Virus record (IMG/VR): IMGVR_UViG_3300026085_000093
Coordinates: 160,001 to 224,000 of that record
Strand: one strand, 5' to 3'
Origin: a virus
Lineage: Duplodnaviria; Caudoviricetes
Length of the DNA stretch: 64,000 nucleotides
Within the stretch, counting starts at the first letter, position 1, and the number at the start of each line of letters is the position of its first letter. The position numbers were made by a program, and so were the translations under genes. Of this stretch, positions 3 through 10,582 are shown one piece after another. The notes under the pieces are model-generated. The model was not told where the DNA came from, searched no databases, and saw only the letters and a program-made list of their open reading frames with translations.

Positions 3-1385
3 GGAGAACTCGAACAAGGACAAAATGGAGAACAGTTAAGAAAGGGCGGAATATTTTTAGGTATTAAAGAAAGTTTGATTGAGTTTTTTACAGGAACAGA
101 ATTTGGACAAGCAATTACCGGAGGTATTACAACTGCATTTAACACTGTTGATCGGCATTTATCTAGAATATTAGGAATGCCAGCAGGTACAACAGTATCA
201 GATTGGCTTAGTACTCAATTAACAGCAATTCAGAATGCATTTAACGGTCCAGACGGTGTATTATCTAAAATAACTACATTGTACAATGATATAAAGGGAT
301 TTATAGGCACAAGCGGCCAAACAAGTCTAACACAATGGTTTGACAATACGTTAGCAACTATAAATTCTATGATAGAAACTGTAACAACGACAATGAATAG
401 TACTGTTCAATACTTTAGAGATGCACTAGGTTTTGGACAAGGACAAACACTTCGTGAATGGTTTGACAGTACTTGGACAAGTATTGAAAATACCATGAAT
501 ACCATTAATAACACTATCATTAATGTAATGGAAACAATAGCAAATACATTTGGATTTGCACCAGGAGGCCAAACGTTTCAAGAGTGGATGAACACAACAC
601 TCACCGATTTACAAACTAGAATGCAATCATTTATTGATACCCAAATTACTGCTGTAAGAAAATTACTAGGCATGGAGGCTAACGAAACTTTTGATAGTTA
701 TATTGATAGATTAATTCAATCGATGATAACTTCAATGGAAGCAGGCATATTGCAAATTCTAAAATCTTTAAGTGCTTATGCAAAGTCATTTATTCCAGGT
801 GCTAGGATGACAAGCGCTCAACGTGATGATGCTATGAGTCGCTTTATGGCAGGCGAAAAACTTGACAGGAACGAATTACAAAGTTTAATACAAACTATAC
901 GTGCAGAACAAGTTGATCAATCAATTGCAAATGGCAATGTTATTTCTGGAAATTTTGCTAAATTTTTAAACTTAATAACTGATCCTGTCTCAGACGCACT
1001 TAATTTAGATGCTCTTATGACCGATCCTGATGCATTACGTCAGAGTATCATAGCACTTTATGGTAATGCTCCTACCTTTCCTGAATTTTACAATGGAACA
1101 AATGGGTTCCGAGAGTTTGGTAGAGGAACTCATGCAATATTGCACGGTAATGAAGCAGTTGTGCCTAGGAATACAGAAGCAGGACAACTTCTAGATGCGT
1201 TCTACGAAAGGCAAGGTTCTATAGGCTCAAGTACGGACCAGACTCAGTTAATTCAGAAGCTAGATCAGTTAAATAACAATATGAAAATGGCTGTGCATTT
1301 GCTAAGTGAAGGACTAAGTGTTGAAAAAGGCATTGCTAGAAATACAAAAGGCAGTACTAACCTGTATAGGAGTTTAGGTAGATGA
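3..1385 (+). CDS. Tape-measure-like virion protein, C-terminal part (5'-truncated by window edge)
   Basis: Frame is open from nt 3, so the 75 start is not the real start. Amphipathic Thr/Gln-rich ~40-aa repeats (e.g. GQTLREWFDST, GQTFQEWMNTT) and C-terminal GTHAILHGNEAVVP motif as seen in large-phage tape-measure proteins; stop overlaps portal start (ATGA). Confidence 0.6.
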   Translation, partial: GELEQGQNGEQLRKGGIFLGIKESLIEFFTGTEFGQAITGGITTAFNTVDRHLSRILGMPAGTTVSDWLSTQLTAIQNAFNGPDGVLSKITTLYNDIKGFIGTSGQTSLTQWFDNTLATINSMIETVTTTMNSTVQYFRDALGFGQGQTLREWFDSTWTSIENTMNTINNTIINVMETIANTFGFAPGGQTFQEWMNTTLTDLQTRMQSFIDTQITAVRKLLGMEANETFDSYIDRLIQSMITSMEAGILQILKSLSAYAKSFIPGARMTSAQRDDAMSRFMAGEKLDRNELQSLIQTIRAEQVDQSIANGNVISGNFAKFLNLITDPVSDALNLDALMTDPDALRQSIIALYGNAPTFPEFYNGTNGFREFGRGTHAILHGNEAVVPRNTEAGQLLDAFYERQGSIGSSTDQTQLIQKLDQLNNNMKMAVHLLSEGLSVEKGIARNTKGSTNLYRSLGR

Positions 1386-4230: not shown

Positions 4231-5160
4231 ATGACTGACACTAATAAGTTCGAGGAAATGCTCGAAAAACTAGTTAATGAGGACCGTGAAGGTGCTGAAG
4301 AATTATTCCACGAGATTGTTGTAGAAAAATCACGTGAGATTTATCAATCAATTATTGAATCAGAAGAAGAAGTTGAAGAAACTACAGACGAAGAAGTAGA
4401 TGAAGCAACTGACGAAGAAGTAGACGAGTCAGAAGATGACTTAGACGAAGCAACTGACGAAGAAGTTGATGAATCAGAAGATGACATTGACGAAATGTTT
4501 GGCCTAGACGACATTGAAGCAGAAGCAGATGATCCAGTAATGGACCTAATGAAAGATGCAGGTGCAGATGATGCAGAAGGCGACGATATGGACATGGACG
4601 CAGACGACGAAGAAGGCGACATGGATAATGATGATCTAGAAGATAAAGTTATGGATCTAGAAGATGCTTTAGAAGACCTAAAAGCAGAATTTGAAAAAAT
4701 GATGGGTGATGAAGCAGATGACGACGAAGGCGATGAAGAGCCAGAAGAAGAAGCATTTGCTTTTGAATCAGACGATGAAGAAGTAGACGAAGCAGCAGAC
4801 GAAGAAGTTGACGAAGCAGCAGACGAAGAAGTTGAAGAGTCACGTACAAAAAGCGCAAGCGAACAAATGCGTGAGTATGTTGAAAAAGTTAGTGCTACAA
4901 TGGGCGACAACGGCGCACATACAAAATCACCAGTAGCAGGCAAAAATGATATGGGCGGCACAGCAGCAAATATCGCAACAGGCGGTGAAAGCAAAAGCGA
5001 AGGAACTGGTGCAGGTGCACCAAAAGAAGATAACGCAGGGAACGTAAATGTTCCAGGCGGTAAGGCTTCAAAATCAATGAAGTCACAACCTGGCCACGGC
5101 GCTGAGAAAAAGGGCAAGCCAGAGACTGCTGATAATAAAAAGTCTAACATAGGCTCTTAA
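4231..5160 (+). CDS. Highly acidic prohead core/scaffold-like protein
   Basis: Extreme Asp/Glu content with DEEVDEA(A/T) repeats; position between portal and prohead protease; AAGGAG SD and late motif at 4189-4194. Confidence 0.7.
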   Translation: MTDTNKFEEMLEKLVNEDREGAEELFHEIVVEKSREIYQSIIESEEEVEETTDEEVDEATDEEVDESEDDLDEATDEEVDESEDDIDEMFGLDDIEAEADDPVMDLMKDAGADDAEGDDMDMDADDEEGDMDNDDLEDKVMDLEDALEDLKAEFEKMMGDEADDDEGDEEPEEEAFAFESDDEEVDEAADEEVDEAADEEVEESRTKSASEQMREYVEKVSATMGDNGAHTKSPVAGKNDMGGTAANIATGGESKSEGTGAGAPKEDNAGNVNVPGGKASKSMKSQPGHGAEKKGKPETADNKKSNIGS

Positions 5161-5184: not shown

Positions 5185-5808
5185 ATGAATTTACTACGTG
5201 AACATATGAGTTTTGACCAGGCCAGAATGGTCGTTGAGTCTGCTAACGAAGGCAAAGACCTTTACATGAAAGGTATTTGCATACAAGGTGGTGTTAGAAA
5301 CGCCAATCAGCGTGTCTATCCTGTACAAGAGATTAGCAGGGCTGTCCAAACTCTTAATGATCAGATAGCCGGCGGATACTCAGTATGTGGCGAAGTTGAT
5401 CATCCTGAAGGACTAAACATTAACTTAGATCGTGTAAGTCATATGATCACAGATATGTGGATGGATGGCCCAAACGGTTACGGCAAGTTAAAAATTTTAC
5501 CAACACCGATGGGATCCCTTGTTAAAACAATGCTAGAAAGCGGCGTTAAACTTGGGGTTTCGTCACGTGGATCTGGAAACGTAAAAGAAGATGGATCCGG
5601 CGAAGTATCAGAATTTGAGATAATCACTGTAGACGTTGTTGCTCAACCGAGCGCACCGGGTGCTTATCCAACACCGATTTATGAACACCTAATGAACACA
5701 AATGGTGGATACAAGGCAATACTCACTTCGAGAGAAGTTCAAGGCGATAAAAAGGCACAAAAATATATTGCAGAGAGTCTATTTAAAATAATAGACAAGC
5801 TCCAATAA
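5185..5808 (+). CDS. gp21: Prohead core protease (T4 gp21-like)
   Basis: NANQRVYP, GEVDHPEG..INLDRVSH, GKLKILPTPMG, LGVSSRGSG, DVVAQPSAPGA motifs. Confidence 0.95.
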   Translation: MNLLREHMSFDQARMVVESANEGKDLYMKGICIQGGVRNANQRVYPVQEISRAVQTLNDQIAGGYSVCGEVDHPEGLNINLDRVSHMITDMWMDGPNGYGKLKILPTPMGSLVKTMLESGVKLGVSSRGSGNVKEDGSGEVSEFEIITVDVVAQPSAPGAYPTPIYEHLMNTNGGYKAILTSREVQGDKKAQKYIAESLFKIIDKLQ

Positions 5809-5820
5809 AAGGAGAAAATC

Positions 5821-6909
5821 ATGGAAGCTATCAAAGACCTTTTAGAGAGCGATGCAATTACAGAAGCAATGGCATCTGAAATACAAGAAGCATTTGACGC
5901 AAAAGTTAAAGAAAATAAACTTGCTGTTACAGCAGAACTACGTGAGGAGTTTGCAAAGAAATATGAACACGACAAAGGTGTTATGATCGAAGCAATCGAC
6001 GCTATGGTATCTGAAAAACTTTCAGAAGAAATGGCAGAATTCCACGAAGATCGTAAACAACTTGCAGAACAAAAAGCAAAATATGCTTTAGCAATGAAAG
6101 AAAATGCTAATCTAATGTCTCAGTTTGTAACTAAGACACTAGCAAATGAAATTTCAGAACTACACGAAGATCAAAAAACAATGGCAACTAAGTTTTCAGT
6201 GTTAGAAGACTTCGTAGTAGAGCAACTTGCATCAGAAATTGCAGAGTTCCAAGAAGATAAAAAGGACCTGGCTGAAACAAAAGTACGTTTAGTACGTGAA
6301 GCCAAGGCTCACTTCGAAAAAGTACGTAAGAACTTTATCGAAAGAAGTGCAACAGCAATTGAAAATGTTGTATCTACCGGTCTAAAGGCAGAAATATCTC
6401 AACTAAAAGAAGATATTGAAGCGGCTCGCAAAAATGATTTCGGACGTAAGATTTTTGAAGCATTTAGTTCTGAGTATATGAACTCACATCTAAATGAAAA
6501 ATCAGAAACTGCAAAACTTCTAAAACTTGTTGATGCAAAAAATAAACAAATTGCAGAAGCAAAAACTTTCGTAACGAAAGCAAAAGAAATTGCAGAAAGC
6601 AAAGATGCAGAAGTTAAGCGTCTTGTTGAAGCACAAAAACGTGCTAAAATCATGAGTGAACTTGTTTCACCATTGAGCAAAGACCAAAAAGACATTATGA
6701 CGGATTTACTGGAAACAGTTCAGACTACAAAACTACGTGAGTCGTTTGACAAGTACCTACCATCAGTTATTGACGGTAAAAGTCCAGCAAAGCAGAAGGC
6801 ACCACTAACAGAGGCAAAAGAAGTAACAGGCAATAGAGAAATTAGTTCAGACAGCAAGCAGATTGACACAAACGTTGTGGACATGAAAAGACTTGCTGGT
6901 TTAAATTAA
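5821..6909 (+). CDS. gp22: Prohead core scaffolding protein (T4 gp22-like)
   Basis: Long coiled-coil Glu/Lys/Ala-rich protein between protease and capsid gene; AGGAG SD. Confidence 0.85.
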   Translation: MEAIKDLLESDAITEAMASEIQEAFDAKVKENKLAVTAELREEFAKKYEHDKGVMIEAIDAMVSEKLSEEMAEFHEDRKQLAEQKAKYALAMKENANLMSQFVTKTLANEISELHEDQKTMATKFSVLEDFVVEQLASEIAEFQEDKKDLAETKVRLVREAKAHFEKVRKNFIERSATAIENVVSTGLKAEISQLKEDIEAARKNDFGRKIFEAFSSEYMNSHLNEKSETAKLLKLVDAKNKQIAEAKTFVTKAKEIAESKDAEVKRLVEAQKRAKIMSELVSPLSKDQKDIMTDLLETVQTTKLRESFDKYLPSVIDGKSPAKQKAPLTEAKEVTGNREISSDSKQIDTNVVDMKRLAGLN

Positions 6910-6919
6910 GGAGATAATT

Positions 6920-8098
6920 ATGTCAGAACTATTAGAAAGTCGCTGGCAGGAGACAAAAGGTGCACTTCTTGAAGGCCTAAATGGTAACAAGAAAGCTGTA
7001 ATGGCGACAACACTTGAAAATACACGCAAGTATTTGTCAGAGAGTGCAACTTCAGGCGCAACTGCTGCTGGTAACATCGCAACACTAAACCGTGTGATCC
7101 TTCCTGTGATCAGACGTGTAATGCCAACCGTTATTGCTAACGAGTTGGTAGGCGTTCAGCCAATGACTGGTCCAGTCGGACAAATCCATACTTTAAGAGT
7201 ACGTTATAGTGACGCATTCACAGGTTCAGCAGGCGGAAGCACTGTCGCTGGCGAAGAAGCACTATCACCGTTCAAAATTGCAGAAGGTTATTCAGGTAAC
7301 ACAACATCTGCAGACACAGCCGGTGCAACAGGTGCTCTAGAAGGTATTGCTGGTAACAGACTAAGCATTCAGATCTTGAAGCAAACAGTCGAAGCCAAAT
7401 CACGTAAACTAAGCGCACGTTGGACATTTGAATCAGCGCAAGACGCTCAGTCACAGCATGGCATCGACGTAGAAGCAGAAATCATGGCAGCACTTGCTCA
7501 AGAGATTACTGCTGAGATCGACCAAGAAATCATCCGCAGCCTAACAACTCTTGCAGGTTCAGCGGTTGAAACATACGACCAAGCCGCTGTATCAGGTACG
7601 GCTACTTTTGTTGGCGACGAACACGCAGCACTTGCAGTTCAAATCAACAGAGTGTCAAACCTAATTGCACAGCGTACACGCAGAGGCGCAGGTAACTGGG
7701 CAGTTGTATCACCAACAGTACTAACACTACTACAAAGTGCAACAACATCTGCATTTGCTCGTACAACAGAAGGTACATTTGAAGCACCAACAAACACAAA
7801 AATGGTTGGTACACTAAACAACAGCATGAAAGTATATGTAAACACATATGCAGGTAATGACAATGTTCTAGTTGGCTACAAAGGTACATCAGAATCAGAC
7901 GCAGCAGCGTTCTACTGCCCATACATTCCATTAATGAGCAGTGGTGTTGTACTAGATCCATCAACATTCGAACCAACAGTGTCATTCATGACACGTTATG
8001 GTTACGTAGAACTATCAAACGCAGCATCGTCACTAGGCAATGCAGCGGATTACCTAGGTCTAGTTGGTGTAACAACAGCAAACCTAAGCTTCGCGTAA
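6920..8098 (+). CDS. gp23: Major capsid protein (T4 gp23-like)
   Basis: LPVIRRVMPTVIANELVGVQPMTGPVGQIHTLR, TVEAKSRKLSARWTFE.AQD, AEIDQEII, AFYCPYIPL, FMTRYG motifs. Confidence 0.97.
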   Translation: MSELLESRWQETKGALLEGLNGNKKAVMATTLENTRKYLSESATSGATAAGNIATLNRVILPVIRRVMPTVIANELVGVQPMTGPVGQIHTLRVRYSDAFTGSAGGSTVAGEEALSPFKIAEGYSGNTTSADTAGATGALEGIAGNRLSIQILKQTVEAKSRKLSARWTFESAQDAQSQHGIDVEAEIMAALAQEITAEIDQEIIRSLTTLAGSAVETYDQAAVSGTATFVGDEHAALAVQINRVSNLIAQRTRRGAGNWAVVSPTVLTLLQSATTSAFARTTEGTFEAPTNTKMVGTLNNSMKVYVNTYAGNDNVLVGYKGTSESDAAAFYCPYIPLMSSGVVLDPSTFEPTVSFMTRYGYVELSNAASSLGNAADYLGLVGVTTANLSFA

Positions 8099-8120
8099 GT
8101 TTTAGAATATATATTTTTAA

Positions 8121-8145
8121 GATAGGCCCTGCGGGGCCTATTTTT
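8121..8145 (+). terminator. Rho-independent terminator after capsid gene
   Basis: ATAGGCCC-TGCG-GGGCCTAT stem followed by T tract. Confidence 0.85.
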
Positions 8146-8170
8146 ATGTAAATACTGTAAGGAGATACTA

Positions 8171-8383
8171 ATGGAAACAGGTACAGTATATAAAAAATTA
8201 AAAATGCATGGATTTATTAGACCAGATCGTTGGAAAGCGACACGTAAAGATATTGTGTTTGATCCACGTTTGTATGATCTAAAAATTGGCGACAGAGTGC
8301 AATATCTTGCAGATGATTTTAAAGATAGAAAATTTGCAACAAAAATAGAAAAAATTGAAAAAAAAGATCAAGATTATCGTTGA
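8171..8383 (+). CDS. Small hypothetical protein
   Basis: 70-aa ORF with AAGGAG SD and TAAATA at 8149-8154. Confidence 0.7.
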   Translation: METGTVYKKLKMHGFIRPDRWKATRKDIVFDPRLYDLKIGDRVQYLADDFKDRKFATKIEKIEKKDQDYR

Positions 8384-8407
8384 CAAACTTTTTTTAGATG
8401 TTATATT
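8380..8407 (+). promoter_or_regulatory. Sigma70-type promoter driving the non-coding element
   Basis: TTGACA (8380-8385), 16-nt spacer, TG-n-TATATT extended -10 (8399-8407). Confidence 0.7.
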
Positions 8408-8413
8408 AAGTAC

Positions 8414-8630
8414 ATAACAAAGACGACGGTCCGAGTTAGATAGTGCAAGGAAACGATGCTTACCCAGGCATTAACTTGACTCACACGCTGTGGTGGCGCT
8501 GTAAGACTTTGGAGACAAAGCATTGCAGGAAAAGTAGAACTAACCATTCTATTGTGAGGTTCCGTGCTGATCTGAGCCTGATGGGGCATAGTGCGGTTGT
8601 TGGTAATCAGTAGTCCAACCTATCACATAT
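8414..8630 (+). ncRNA. Candidate standalone structured ncRNA (family unidentified)
   Basis: 97/200 G+C in 8421-8620 in an AT-rich genome; no credible ORF on + strand; CTTTG-GAGA-CAAAG GNRA hairpin, several other stems, 3' pseudoknot candidate; bounded by promoter and terminator. Ends are approximate. Confidence 0.7.
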
Positions 8631-8635
8631 TATAG

Positions 8636-8670
8636 AAAAAGGTCTGCTATATTTTAGTAGGCCTTTTTTT
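8636..8670 (+). terminator. Rho-independent (possibly bidirectional) terminator closing the ncRNA
   Basis: AAAAAGGTCTGCTA / TAGTAGGCCTTTTT stem with flanking A and T tracts. Confidence 0.8.
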
Positions 8671-8701
8671 ATGACATAATAACCCATTTTAATCTTTTGG
8701 A

Positions 8702-8793
8702 TAAATACTTGTGTCAAGAGGAGTGCCTCTAGATGAGGACTTATGCGGTGCCCGCCGCGTATTACCTAGAACGTAACATAAAAGGAGAAAACA
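8702..8793 (+). promoter_or_regulatory. Late promoter plus structured 5' leader of the tail/fibre operon
   Basis: TAAATA 8702-8707; stems AGAGG/CCTCT, TATGCGG/CCGCGTA, TCTAG/CTAGA; AAAGGAG SD before ATG 8794. Confidence 0.6.
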
Positions 8794-9243
8794 ATGGGAC
8801 GTCCAATTAATAAATCAAAAATAGGATACGGTGCAGGTAAAATTGCTGTAAGCCGTCACTATTTTACAGGTGGTTCAGAAGCAACTACAGCAGCACACAT
8901 TTACAAAGTAAAAGGTGCTAACCAATTTTGGGTACGCTTAGATAGCGACAATGCAGATCCAACAGCAGGCGAAGTTCTAAAATTAACGACAGAAGGCAAC
9001 GGAGCGATGCCAGAAGGTACATTTAGAATTGATGCAACTGGTTCTGACTCAACAGTTTATCAAGTAACACAACTTCGTAACAGAACAGTACAAATTGAAA
9101 ATACTGCAAAAGGTACTGCTACACCTCCAGATGGTGACAAAGCAGACAATGTAATTTACGAAATTGGTAATCATCCAGATGCAAGAGAAGATTCAGGTGT
9201 ACCAAACGCAGTATTAAGTGTATCTCTACCAAGACAATCATAA
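8794..9243 (+). CDS. Hypothetical virion structural protein
   Basis: 149-aa ORF with strong SD, first gene of a late operon of structural-type proteins. Confidence 0.7.
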   Translation: MGRPINKSKIGYGAGKIAVSRHYFTGGSEATTAAHIYKVKGANQFWVRLDSDNADPTAGEVLKLTTEGNGAMPEGTFRIDATGSDSTVYQVTQLRNRTVQIENTAKGTATPPDGDKADNVIYEIGNHPDAREDSGVPNAVLSVSLPRQS

Positions 9244-9256
9244 GTTGGAGATATAA

Positions 9257-10582
9257 ATGTCAGCGTCTAGAATCGAGCAGTATGGAGTCGACAATTATAA
9301 GTTAACAATTAACGATGGCGGAACTATTGAAATTAATGTAGGTTCCGGCACTGTCGTTATCAATGGTGACTTAGATGTCAATGGTTCCCAAACTTCGATT
9401 ACTTCGTCTGAATTAATTGTAAGTGATAAGACCCTAACACTAAACAATCAATCTAATACACTATACGATATTGTTGGTATTACACAAACAAACCCAGCAC
9501 AAATAGAATTATCAGATGCACACAGTTTTACTGATGGTAGCGAAGTAATCATTACTAATGTTTTAGGAATGATAGAATTAAACAATAACACTTACTATGT
9601 AAATGTTGTTGATCCTACCACAGTTGAATTGTTTGCAGATTTTCTATTAACAACGCCTGTAGATTCGTCAGGGTTTACTGCATACGTAAGTGATGGTAAT
9701 ATACAAAGGGTAATTGCAACTGGTATTGGTGGAGATGAAATTTCAGGTATCATAATGGATAGAGGTACATTACCTAATGCTGTTATGTTTTACGATGAAA
9801 ACTTACTTTCATACACTAACGGTGTGTTAGAAGCAAATGCAGGTGCATTTAAGTTTGGTTTAGAAGGTTCAGGATACTTAGGTATCTACACTAGCAGTAT
9901 TAAAACTGAAGACGGTAATGATCTTAACTTGTTACCAGGATCAAACTTAGGAGGTGTTGTTTCTGTATCAGGATCACTTGATTATGAAAAACGCCTTGCT
10001 GAATATGATGGCAGTGAAATTAAAAATATGCCTACAAATTCTGACAGATTGTCAGGGGCAGATTGGCCAGGATATGAACCAGATGCAATTCCTAATTTGC
10101 AGTTCTTGAAAGACTATGTTAGAGACTATCACAAATACAATTGGCAATATAGAATTAATGCTATTGAACCGGATGGAACAACAAAAGTAGAAGCATTCAG
10201 TACACTAGATGGTACTACAACATTAAGTAATGTTAGAATTACTGTAGACGGTAGTGAAATTGCATACTTTTATGAAACATCTGCAGAAATTGCACAAGTT
10301 ACCATAGACGGCTCTACAATTTCGTCAACTGGACTTGATAGTGATTTGAAAATATCAGGTAATAATTTAGGTGATGTGCAAGTATTAACACCTATGTTGT
10401 TTCCTAAATTGACAGATCCTGCATTAACTGCTACAGAAGCAACACCACCAACTGATGGTACAAAGATATATGCAAAAGACGAGGCTGATGGCGGCACAGG
10501 TTTATATTTTATAAACGAGTTAGGTACACAAGACGAATTTATAAGCAGGAATAAAGCTCTGCTTTATAGTATTATTTTTTAA
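9257..10582 (+). CDS. Virion structural/baseplate-associated protein with E1-FCCH-like beta domain
   Basis: Beta-rich Thr/Gly/Asp/Ile composition; segment ITQTNPAQIELSDAHSFTDGSEVIITNVLGMIELNNNTYYV resembles the FCCH-like module common in phage structural proteins. Confidence 0.6.
   Translation: MSASRIEQYGVDNYKLTINDGGTIEINVGSGTVVINGDLDVNGSQTSITSSELIVSDKTLTLNNQSNTLYDIVGITQTNPAQIELSDAHSFTDGSEVIITNVLGMIELNNNTYYVNVVDPTTVELFADFLLTTPVDSSGFTAYVSDGNIQRVIATGIGGDEISGIIMDRGTLPNAVMFYDENLLSYTNGVLEANAGAFKFGLEGSGYLGIYTSSIKTEDGNDLNLLPGSNLGGVVSVSGSLDYEKRLAEYDGSEIKNMPTNSDRLSGADWPGYEPDAIPNLQFLKDYVRDYHKYNWQYRINAIEPDGTTKVEAFSTLDGTTTLSNVRITVDGSEIAYFYETSAEIAQVTIDGSTISSTGLDSDLKISGNNLGDVQVLTPMLFPKLTDPALTATEATPPTDGTKIYAKDEADGGTGLYFINELGTQDEFISRNKALLYSIIF

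Follow-up and report, generated by a model that had tools for sequence, protein, structure and literature searches.

A divergent manA-family RNA in a self-contained cassette behind the capsid gene of an uncultured jumbo phage: a candidate free and self-assembling RNA

Immediately downstream of the genes encoding a T4-type prohead protease and a gp23 major capsid protein, the IMG/VR virus record IMGVR_UViG_3300026085_000093 carries a structured RNA which almost certainly belongs to the manA family (Rfam RF01745) and which is enclosed by a promoter and a terminator of its own. The window analysed here is a stretch of 64,000 nucleotides (nt), corresponding to positions 160,001 to 224,000 of that record, and all coordinates given below without a locus name refer to it. 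Its source is an uncultured aquatic jumbo phage with a T4-type capsid. The interpretation that we favour, with reasonable rather than strong confidence, is that this locus represents a manA-RNA gene in a self-contained cassette, giving rise to a discrete, early, host-made RNA that functions as a free molecule and probably self-assembles. The components of this interpretation differ in strength: a free-standing transcript is very likely, while self-assembly as its mode of action, which is argued by analogy with other manA RNAs, is a serious candidate with slightly less than an even chance.

The match to RF01745 is full-length, covering model positions 1-192 of 192 at 8420-8629 on the plus strand with 54.9 bits and an expectation value (E) of 3.5e-13 in a cmscan search of 801 nt, and the same match obtains E 2.5e-14 when the 236-kb record is searched, in which it is the sole manA copy. 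An earlier sequence-only reading of this DNA had placed the RNA in no known family, a statement that this match overturns. Default Rfam annotation misses the window copy because 54.9 bits is lower than the gathering score of 55.2, which is a curation threshold and not a biological feature; in gathering mode only the freshwater-2 RNA (8724-8796) is reported for the window, and manA surfaces when an E-value threshold is applied. Within 8100-8900 no Rfam match to GOLLD, ROOL, other catalogued large phage RNAs or the put and EAR families was obtained, either in gathering mode or with E up to 10, and ARAGORN detected no transfer RNA (tRNA) or transfer-messenger RNA in the window. Moreover, blastn of the RNA region and of the manA RNA of Synechococcus phage S-CREM1 against 50,697 phage records returned only the queries themselves, indicating that this family is too divergent for a search by sequence alone.

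The proposal that manA is a riboswitch derives from its initial description. The family was reported in 2010 as an orphan riboswitch candidate from marine metagenomes, T4-like cyanophages and two gamma-proteobacteria, with Photobacterium among its carriers, and it was rated as cis-regulatory and a probable riboswitch (Rfam type Cis-reg), for which no ligand is known (Weinberg et al. 2010, PMC2864571). In the text supplements of that work manA figures only as a table row, without discussion. The RNA described here is a new, divergent member of this family in a new kind of phage.

A coding explanation for the stretch was rejected, as no conserved open reading frame (ORF) exists among homologues: the longest stop-free stretch switches strand and frame between them, and indels are mostly of 1-2 nt. 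The plus strand folds far better than its shuffled versions (z -3.74, with none of 200 shuffles as good; z -0.22 for the minus strand), and the G+C content is 0.46 in 8400-8599 compared with 0.30-0.34 just upstream. The elevated G+C and the stand-alone, non-coding and structured nature of the RNA had both been put forward in the sequence-only reading, and both are borne out, the latter also by the conserved promoter and terminator and by the RNA-library contigs described below.

To place the locus among its relatives, 80 IMG/VR contigs with capsid proteins 81-99% identical to that of the window were used (L-numbers denote single loci, L062 stemming from the same record as L098). The RF01745 model detects the RNA in 18 of the 80, always just downstream of the capsid gene and with 29.7-78.6 bits, and five of these 18 syntenic copies exceed the Rfam cut-off (55.5-78.6 bits). 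A covariance model built from the manA sequences of the relatives (R1) matches 24 of the 80, of which three are truncated at a contig end, and it also recovers the annotated manA of S-CREM1. Approximately 18 of the 51 relatives with at least 1.3 kb of sequence past the capsid gene carry the RNA, and its distance from the capsid stop codon ranges from 111 to about 1000 nt; with this variable presence and distance, manA behaves as a facultative cassette in a slot behind the capsid gene. The nearest cultured capsids (65-71% at the amino-acid level) are those of jumbo phages infecting Vibrio, Sinorhizobium, Erwinia, Cronobacter and Pseudomonas, and a search of the four of them whose capsids are closest gave no match to RF01745.

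Because RNAalifold on a plain MAFFT alignment gave only 25 pairs, the Rfam consensus structure was mapped onto the window and the sequences (26 in total) were realigned with the covariance model, which delineates the following elements:

8420-8629, plus strand: manA RNA core of 210 nt, defined by the RF01745 match and covariation; a 5' hairpin, then P1 enclosing P2, the P3 domain, P4 and P5.
8419-8434, plus strand: 5' hairpin (helix 1) with GACG tetraloop at 8425-8428; all 6 pairs changed on both sides.
8439-8443 with 8620-8624, plus strand: closing helix P1, 100% paired.
8446-8478, plus strand: P2, with outer stem CAAG/CUUG (8446-8449 with 8475-8478), internal loop, and inner hairpin 8455-8460 with 8467-8472.
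8461-8466, plus strand: L3, the apical loop of P2, UACCCA.
8480-8558, plus strand: P3 domain (P3a, P3b and P3c), with closing helix CUCACA/UGUGAG (8480-8485 with 8553-8558).
8486-8488 with 8496-8498, plus strand: P3a, with loop L5 GUGGUG at 8490-8495.
8499-8528, plus strand: P3b, a long hairpin with the GNRA loop L6 (GAGA, 8512-8515).
8534-8539 with 8547-8552, plus strand: P3c, with loop L7 CUAACCA at 8540-8546.
8562-8596, plus strand: P4 hairpin, with outer stem 8562-8567 with 8591-8596 and apical loop L8, CUGAU at 8578-8582 followed by GGGG.
8599-8619, plus strand: P5 hairpin GUUGG/CCAAC, with 11-nt loop L9 UAAUCAGUAGU at 8604-8614; 100% paired, 3 pairs covary.

Comparison of the aligned sequences strongly supports the notion that this consensus secondary structure is kept by compensatory changes. 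In the model-fitted alignment 80.4% of cells are paired versus 63.6% in shuffles, with a covariation score of 0.415 versus 0.162 in shuffles and 0.06-0.15 in slid controls (maximum 0.149), and changes on both sides were found in 52 of 64 pairs. The structure-blind MAFFT alignment likewise yields 75.5% of paired cells versus 62.1% in shuffles, and its score of 0.354 compares with 0.165 for shuffled sequences and 0.08-0.18 for slid controls. Between the two alignments, 47-52 pairs show compensatory changes. The outer stem of P2 is paired in 100% and its inner hairpin in 83%, and the 5' hairpin has 3 clean pairs in the window copy and 6 in several relatives. Most of the stems that had been picked out from the single sequence are recovered and covary, namely ATGCT/GGCAT (8456-8471), CTGTA/TGCAG together with CTTTG-GAGA-CAAAG (8499-8528), TAGAA/TTCTA (8535-8551) and GTTGG/CCAAC (8599-8619). 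The pairing of CTCACA (8480-8485) with TGTGAG (8553-8558) also stands, not as the alternative partner it was taken for but as the true closing helix of P3, whereas the proposed stem GAGTTA (8433-8438) with TGACTC (8477-8482) had to be abandoned, since it clashes with two covarying helices and shows mostly no changes or one-sided ones.

The signals that delimit the transcript are equally well defined:

8380-8407, plus strand: sigma70-type promoter, with -35 TTGACA at 8380-8385, extended -10 TG at 8399-8400 and -10 TATATT at 8402-8407.
8640-8670, plus strand: intrinsic terminator, with a 10-bp GC-rich stem (8640-8649 with 8655-8664), a run of seven U at 8664-8670 and a folding free energy (dG) of -13.7.

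Both had been called in the sequence-only reading (the terminator as 8636-8670), and both hold. The promoter matches 11 of 12 consensus positions with a 16-nt spacer ending in TG, and a promoter of the form TTGAC followed by A, C or T, a 16-17 nt spacer with a TGn end and TAnnnT recurs in each of the 21 non-redundant loci of full length, with 8-17 nt between its end and the RNA; from its position the RNA would start near 8414. The terminator stem of the window forms with a probability of 0.997 in the full transcript, and a terminator directly follows the RNA in 19 of the 21 loci (dG -8 to -17, 5-7 U, the U-run starting 26-38 nt past the RNA), with stem sequences that are unrelated between loci. 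Exceptions are L062, in which a tRNA gene lies 4 nt past the manA RNA and the terminator follows the tRNA (5494-5620), promoter and terminator thus being shared, and L009, in which about 185 nt of ORF-poor non-coding sequence separate RNA and terminator (4627-4830) and may constitute a second RNA module co-transcribed with manA.

This arrangement bears directly on the possibility that manA acts here as a cis-acting riboswitch, in which a ligand bound to the manA fold would decide between a stop at 8664-8670 and read-through into the downstream gene. Such a role would accord with the original rating as cis-regulatory and a probable riboswitch (PMC2864571), with the position of manA at the start of the transcript in all loci, and with Prochlorococcus phage P-SSM2, in which the RNA ends 16 nt before the start codon of purL. 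However, the terminator stem has a probability of 0.95-0.999 in every one of 18 full transcripts, the stem sequences vary freely, and the complementarity of the terminator 5' arm to the last 45 nt of the RNA is not above that of shuffled arms in these 18 transcripts; a terminator that always forms and lacks antiterminator complementarity does not resemble a riboswitch platform, and it was rejected as such. Furthermore, the downstream gene possesses its own promoter-like element and leader RNA, a different gene follows the cassette in L044, L049 and L041, the tRNA of L062 intervenes between RNA and terminator, and RNA-contig depth is 0 in 8606-8722 versus about 200 in the bins of the RNA. A riboswitch is therefore judged quite improbable at this locus. 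The position in the 5' untranslated region (5'-UTR) of a protein-coding gene, on which the Cis-reg label is based, is not found in this clade, since 19 of 21 loci have a strong terminator behind the RNA and the next gene has a promoter-like element and a leader of its own; that position reflects how the family has been interpreted and is not one of its defining structural features.

Expression data are in line with a discrete transcript. Six metatranscriptomic runs hold part of the region, four of which (X15-X18) were placed on 6500-10000; these are assembled contigs from RNA libraries instead of raw reads, and strand, exact ends and level are not given by them. In X15 the two bins covering 8372-8605 average 196-210, with contigs there summing to 340.7, as compared with 0.3-2.6 over 8138-8371, 0 over 8606-8722 and 2-6 over the downstream gene, and in X17 the depth of the RNA is 12-15 versus 0, so that the contigs cover the RNA and not its surroundings. 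DNA carry-over cannot account for the signal, because the peak is confined to the RNA. In X16 and X18, on the other hand, the depth of the RNA is close to 0 while that of the capsid gene is in the thousands, which shows expression of the RNA to be uncoupled from that of the capsid gene. Judging from bin averages and the distances to contig ends, the RNA contigs would span roughly 8421-8561. They carry the variants 8502C, 8510A with 8517U, 8519G, 8521A and 8522G, which correspond to the compensatory P3b changes of relative L002. In the mechanism that we propose, host RNA polymerase would produce a discrete RNA of about 257 nt (approximately 8414-8670) early in infection and independently of the late capsid messenger RNA (mRNA), and this RNA would act as an abundant free molecule and not as the leader of the next gene.

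What such a molecule might do is suggested by its loops. The UGGU of L5 (8491-8494) is complementary to the ACCA of L7 (8543-8546), with 93-95% of cells paired and a second pair alternating between G-C (10) and A-U (9) across relatives, and the CUGAU of L8 (8578-8582) is complementary to the AUCAG of L9 (8606-8610). The latter pairing covaries across the clade (CUGAU/AUCAG, AGGAU/AUCCU, GAGAG/UUCUC, AUGA/UCAU, AAUGAUC/GAUCAUU, CAGAA/UUCUG and UGGU/ACCA), its complementarity was reached by none of 5000 permutations, and it covaries in 52 marine manA RNAs as well. When all seven hairpin loops were tested against each other, L8-L9 stood out (4.21 versus 3.43, 0 of 2000 permutations), L3-L5 and L3-L8 were each reached once and L5-L7 18 times in 2000, and the other 17 pairs were unremarkable, though these permutation tests ignore the relatedness of the sequences, so that the significance is somewhat overstated. 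The window RNA itself has the L3-L8 complementarity CCCA/UGGG. The pseudoknot suggested in the sequence-only reading is thereby retained in part: the loop-loop pairing of AUCAG 8606-8610 stands, but the assigned partner TGCTGAT 8565-8571 does not (46.9% of cells paired), this candidate becoming CUGUU in the nearest relatives while CUGAU at 8578-8582 is the conserved partner.

It has recently been reported from cryo-electron microscopy (cryo-EM) that manA RNAs use a pentamer as the building block of octamers, decamers and an icosahedral T=1 cage of 60 subunits (Ren et al., bioRxiv 10.64898/2026.07.01.735769). The pentamer of manA_A0F1 is held by the intermolecular kissing loops L5-L7' and L8-L9', and that of manA_pho34_A767 by L5-L7', L3-L8' and a GNRA-receptor contact of L6; the authors regard manA as a putative cis-regulatory element and offer no in vivo context (bioRxiv 10.64898/2026.07.01.735769). 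The covarying loops of the window appear to be the very loops that form these kissing contacts, and pairings which resemble pseudoknots within one molecule may be assembly interfaces between molecules. Self-assembly is the leading mechanism because of these conserved kissing-loop complementarities: L5-L7 and L8-L9 would pair from one molecule to the next, following the pattern that cryo-EM revealed for other manA RNAs, and many copies of the RNA would join into pentamers and then into closed shells, which might, for example, sequester or scaffold something in the infected cell. This lead differs from the candidate roles put forward in the sequence-only reading, among them a decoy, a sponge, an RNA polymerase mimic and a ribozyme-like RNA.

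The main rival to a self-assembling RNA is a free, trans-acting monomer whose intramolecular pseudoknots lock a compact fold that binds a host or phage protein or a metabolite, as a sponge or decoy would. The cassette, the expression data and the covariation apply to this alternative too, a possible intramolecular pseudoknot of manA was drawn by Weinberg et al. 2010 (PMC2864571), and the depositions for the manA variants 67AA and 6FAB are listed as monomers, even if the preprint text speaks of these variants as decamers and octamers (bioRxiv 10.64898/2026.07.01.735769). We nevertheless regard it as unlikely, considering that cryo-EM resolved L5-L7 as intermolecular in both manA_A0F1 and manA_pho34_A767, and L8-L9 as such in A0F1 (bioRxiv 10.64898/2026.07.01.735769), and that the genes neighbouring manA differ between phage groups, gene linkage thus pointing to no partner protein or ligand.

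Members of the family in other phages help to judge how general a gene-like arrangement is. A total of 56 distinct marine-type copies was collected by an IMG/VR pattern scan filtered with R1, to which P-SSM2 and P-SSM4 were added. A sigma70 promoter with 10-12 of 12 matches ends 2-13 nt before the RNA in 49 of 55 marine loci, compared with 5.5% at random positions, and P-SSM2 and P-SSM4 both have TTGACA, a 16- or 17-nt spacer and TATAAT directly before it. A tRNA follows 0-55 nt downstream in five of the 56 (four tRNA-Asn and one tRNA-Gly). In S-CREM1 (L104, OP535465, 1633-2003) the annotated manA has no promoter of its own directly upstream and lies between tRNA-Leu and tRNA-Asn with a spacing of 0-1 nt, in an array that also includes a wcaG RNA, so that a discrete manA RNA would be set free when the tRNAs are processed. 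The flanks of the three sequences inspected in the 2010 manA alignment include adjacent tRNAs in two and an annotated terminator in one, and no RF01745 match was obtained in Syn9, S-RSM4 and S-SM2 at E 0.001. Hence manA RNA is nearly always the first product of a strong promoter, and it is terminated immediately in a minority of marine copies and in almost all of this clade. In P-SSM4 (L112, AY940168) the gene PSSM4_169.1 (57 amino acids, 164884-165057) is contained almost entirely in the manA RNA (164829-165014, 184 bits), and its annotation as an ORF is probably spurious.

The proximity of promoter and RNA also raises the alternative of a cis element at the 5' end of early transcripts which alters the transcribing polymerase or shields the transcript, for example by processive antitermination, as do the put RNA of phage HK022 and the Bacillus EAR RNA, or by stabilising the 5' end. 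In favour of such a role, a strong promoter lies 2-17 nt ahead of the RNA start in all 21 local loci and in 49 of 55 marine ones, and a terminator often follows the RNA; yet nothing is seen past the terminator in the metatranscriptomes, put and EAR are far smaller and simpler than the manA RNA, the Rfam scans gave no match to those families, and the S-CREM1 copy sits within a tRNA array and lacks a promoter of its own directly upstream. This alternative is very improbable, and like the riboswitch it fits the cassette and the RNA-library data poorly.

Besides the relatedness of the sequences in the permutation tests and the assembled nature of the RNA-library data, several points speak against the interpretation of manA as a free and self-assembling RNA. 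As to its identity, the window copy falls 0.3 bits under the gathering score of its family. With respect to assembly, covariation alone cannot separate intramolecular from intermolecular loop pairing, the loop numbers L5, L7, L8 and L9 were equated with those of the preprint by hairpin order and not from its figures, and the cryo-EM work is an unreviewed preprint that relies on in vitro conditions with 10 mM Mg and a high concentration of RNA (bioRxiv 10.64898/2026.07.01.735769). In addition, the transcript retains its terminator hairpin and 5' leader, which might interfere with assembly. Finally, a terminator within about 60 nt was found in only 15 of the 56 marine loci (versus 5.5% at random positions), which, together with the purL arrangement of P-SSM2, places the RNA at the 5' end of an mRNA across much of the family and fits a cis role better. 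For other manA branches a cis role may apply, in view of the 5'-UTR-like arrangement of P-SSM2 and of many marine copies.

The surroundings of the cassette comprise the following features:

8171-8383: ORF of 70 amino acids, between the capsid terminator (approximately 8124-8148) and the manA promoter.
8701-8707, plus strand: ATAAATA, T4-late-promoter-like, part of the neighbouring gene and not of the RNA unit.
8724-8796, plus strand: freshwater-2 RNA (RF02980), 55.6 bits versus a gathering score of 49.9, likewise part of the neighbouring gene.
1172-1221 of L083, 1985-2034 (minus strand) of L084, 1217-1266 of L085 and 512-558 (minus strand) of L095: glutamine riboswitch aptamers (RF01739).

The TGA stop codon of the 70-amino-acid ORF falls within the -35 hexamer of the manA promoter, and copies that are 31-49% identical were found by tblastn in eleven relatives, seven with manA and four without; Pfam and PHROGs provided no function for this ORF or for the two genes downstream of the RNA. 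The ATAAATA motif fits the core of the T4 late promoter, the consensus of which is TATAAATA, and by this likeness it may serve as a late promoter. The freshwater-2 RNA starts about 17 nt past it and includes the ribosome-binding site and ATG of ORF 8794-9243, a product of 149 amino acids without Pfam or PHROG match, and the series of ATAAATA, freshwater-2 (up to 73 bits) and next gene recurs past the terminator in most relatives, which suggests that a late transcript of these jumbo phages has freshwater-2 as its 5' leader. Four relatives carry the glutamine riboswitch aptamers (43-58 bits), which are located past the capsid gene and about 150-330 nt upstream of manA, ahead of the cassette. Structured RNAs accumulate in the slot that follows the capsid gene.

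Having been an orphan riboswitch candidate since 2010, manA was reported in 2026 as the first natural RNA-only icosahedral cage, without biological context. The window locus and its relatives present this RNA as a complete gene, with an early-type promoter, a terminator and detection in metatranscriptomes, and they extend the family to jumbo phages of a non-cyanobacterial type, a branch that the Rfam cut-off is shown to miss. Self-assembly would require a free RNA that is abundant and of defined length, and such an RNA argues against the cis-regulatory label at least in this clade. A more far-reaching proposition, namely that manA RNAs are not riboswitches but early genes for a self-assembling RNA across T4-type phages, and that here an RNA of about 250 nt builds shells within the cell, appears doubtful. 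If it were true, RNA-only shells would enclose or display something that the phage needs, as a nucleic-acid counterpart of a protein compartment, and this clade with its clean promoter-to-terminator cassette would be a natural system in which to show them; the pairs 8491-8494 with 8543-8546 and 8578-8582 with 8606-8610 offer concrete targets for assembly mutants.

Compared with catalogued manA RNAs, the window RNA retains the order of helices, the GACG loop, the GUGGUG and ACCA loops, the GNRA loop, the GGUA...UCC terminal hairpin and the L8-L9 complementarity, and like the marine copies it starts just past a near-consensus sigma70 promoter. It deviates in its AU-rich P1 (GAUAG/CUAUC instead of GGGAG/CUCCC), in the internal loop of P2 and in a P3b extended to 30 nt, an extension shared by S-CREM1, and, in contrast to the cataloguing of manA as a 5'-UTR element, it forms a terminated stand-alone unit in this clade. 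The gene-like architecture and the near-universal promoter seem to be new to the literature searched. In terms of sequence determinants, it keeps both pentamer complementarities of manA_A0F1 (L5-L7 and L8-L9), and with manA_pho34_A767 it has in common the complementarity of L3 and L8 and the conserved GNRA loop L6.

Among other phage RNAs, GOLLD and ROOL are phage-associated and often located near tRNA genes, and they differ from the window RNA in being several times longer, in their unrelated sequence and fold, and in giving no Rfam match here. They form RNA-only closed homo-oligomers according to cryo-EM (PMC12286853), and these are reported to be dihedral and not icosahedral multimers (bioRxiv 10.64898/2026.07.01.735769). 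As for tRNA linkage, manA is tRNA-linked in L062, in five of 56 marine loci and in S-CREM1, and in this respect it resembles the species 1 and 2 RNAs of T4. These are stable small RNAs made by the host polymerase and co-transcribed with tRNAs, whereas the window cassette contains no tRNA.

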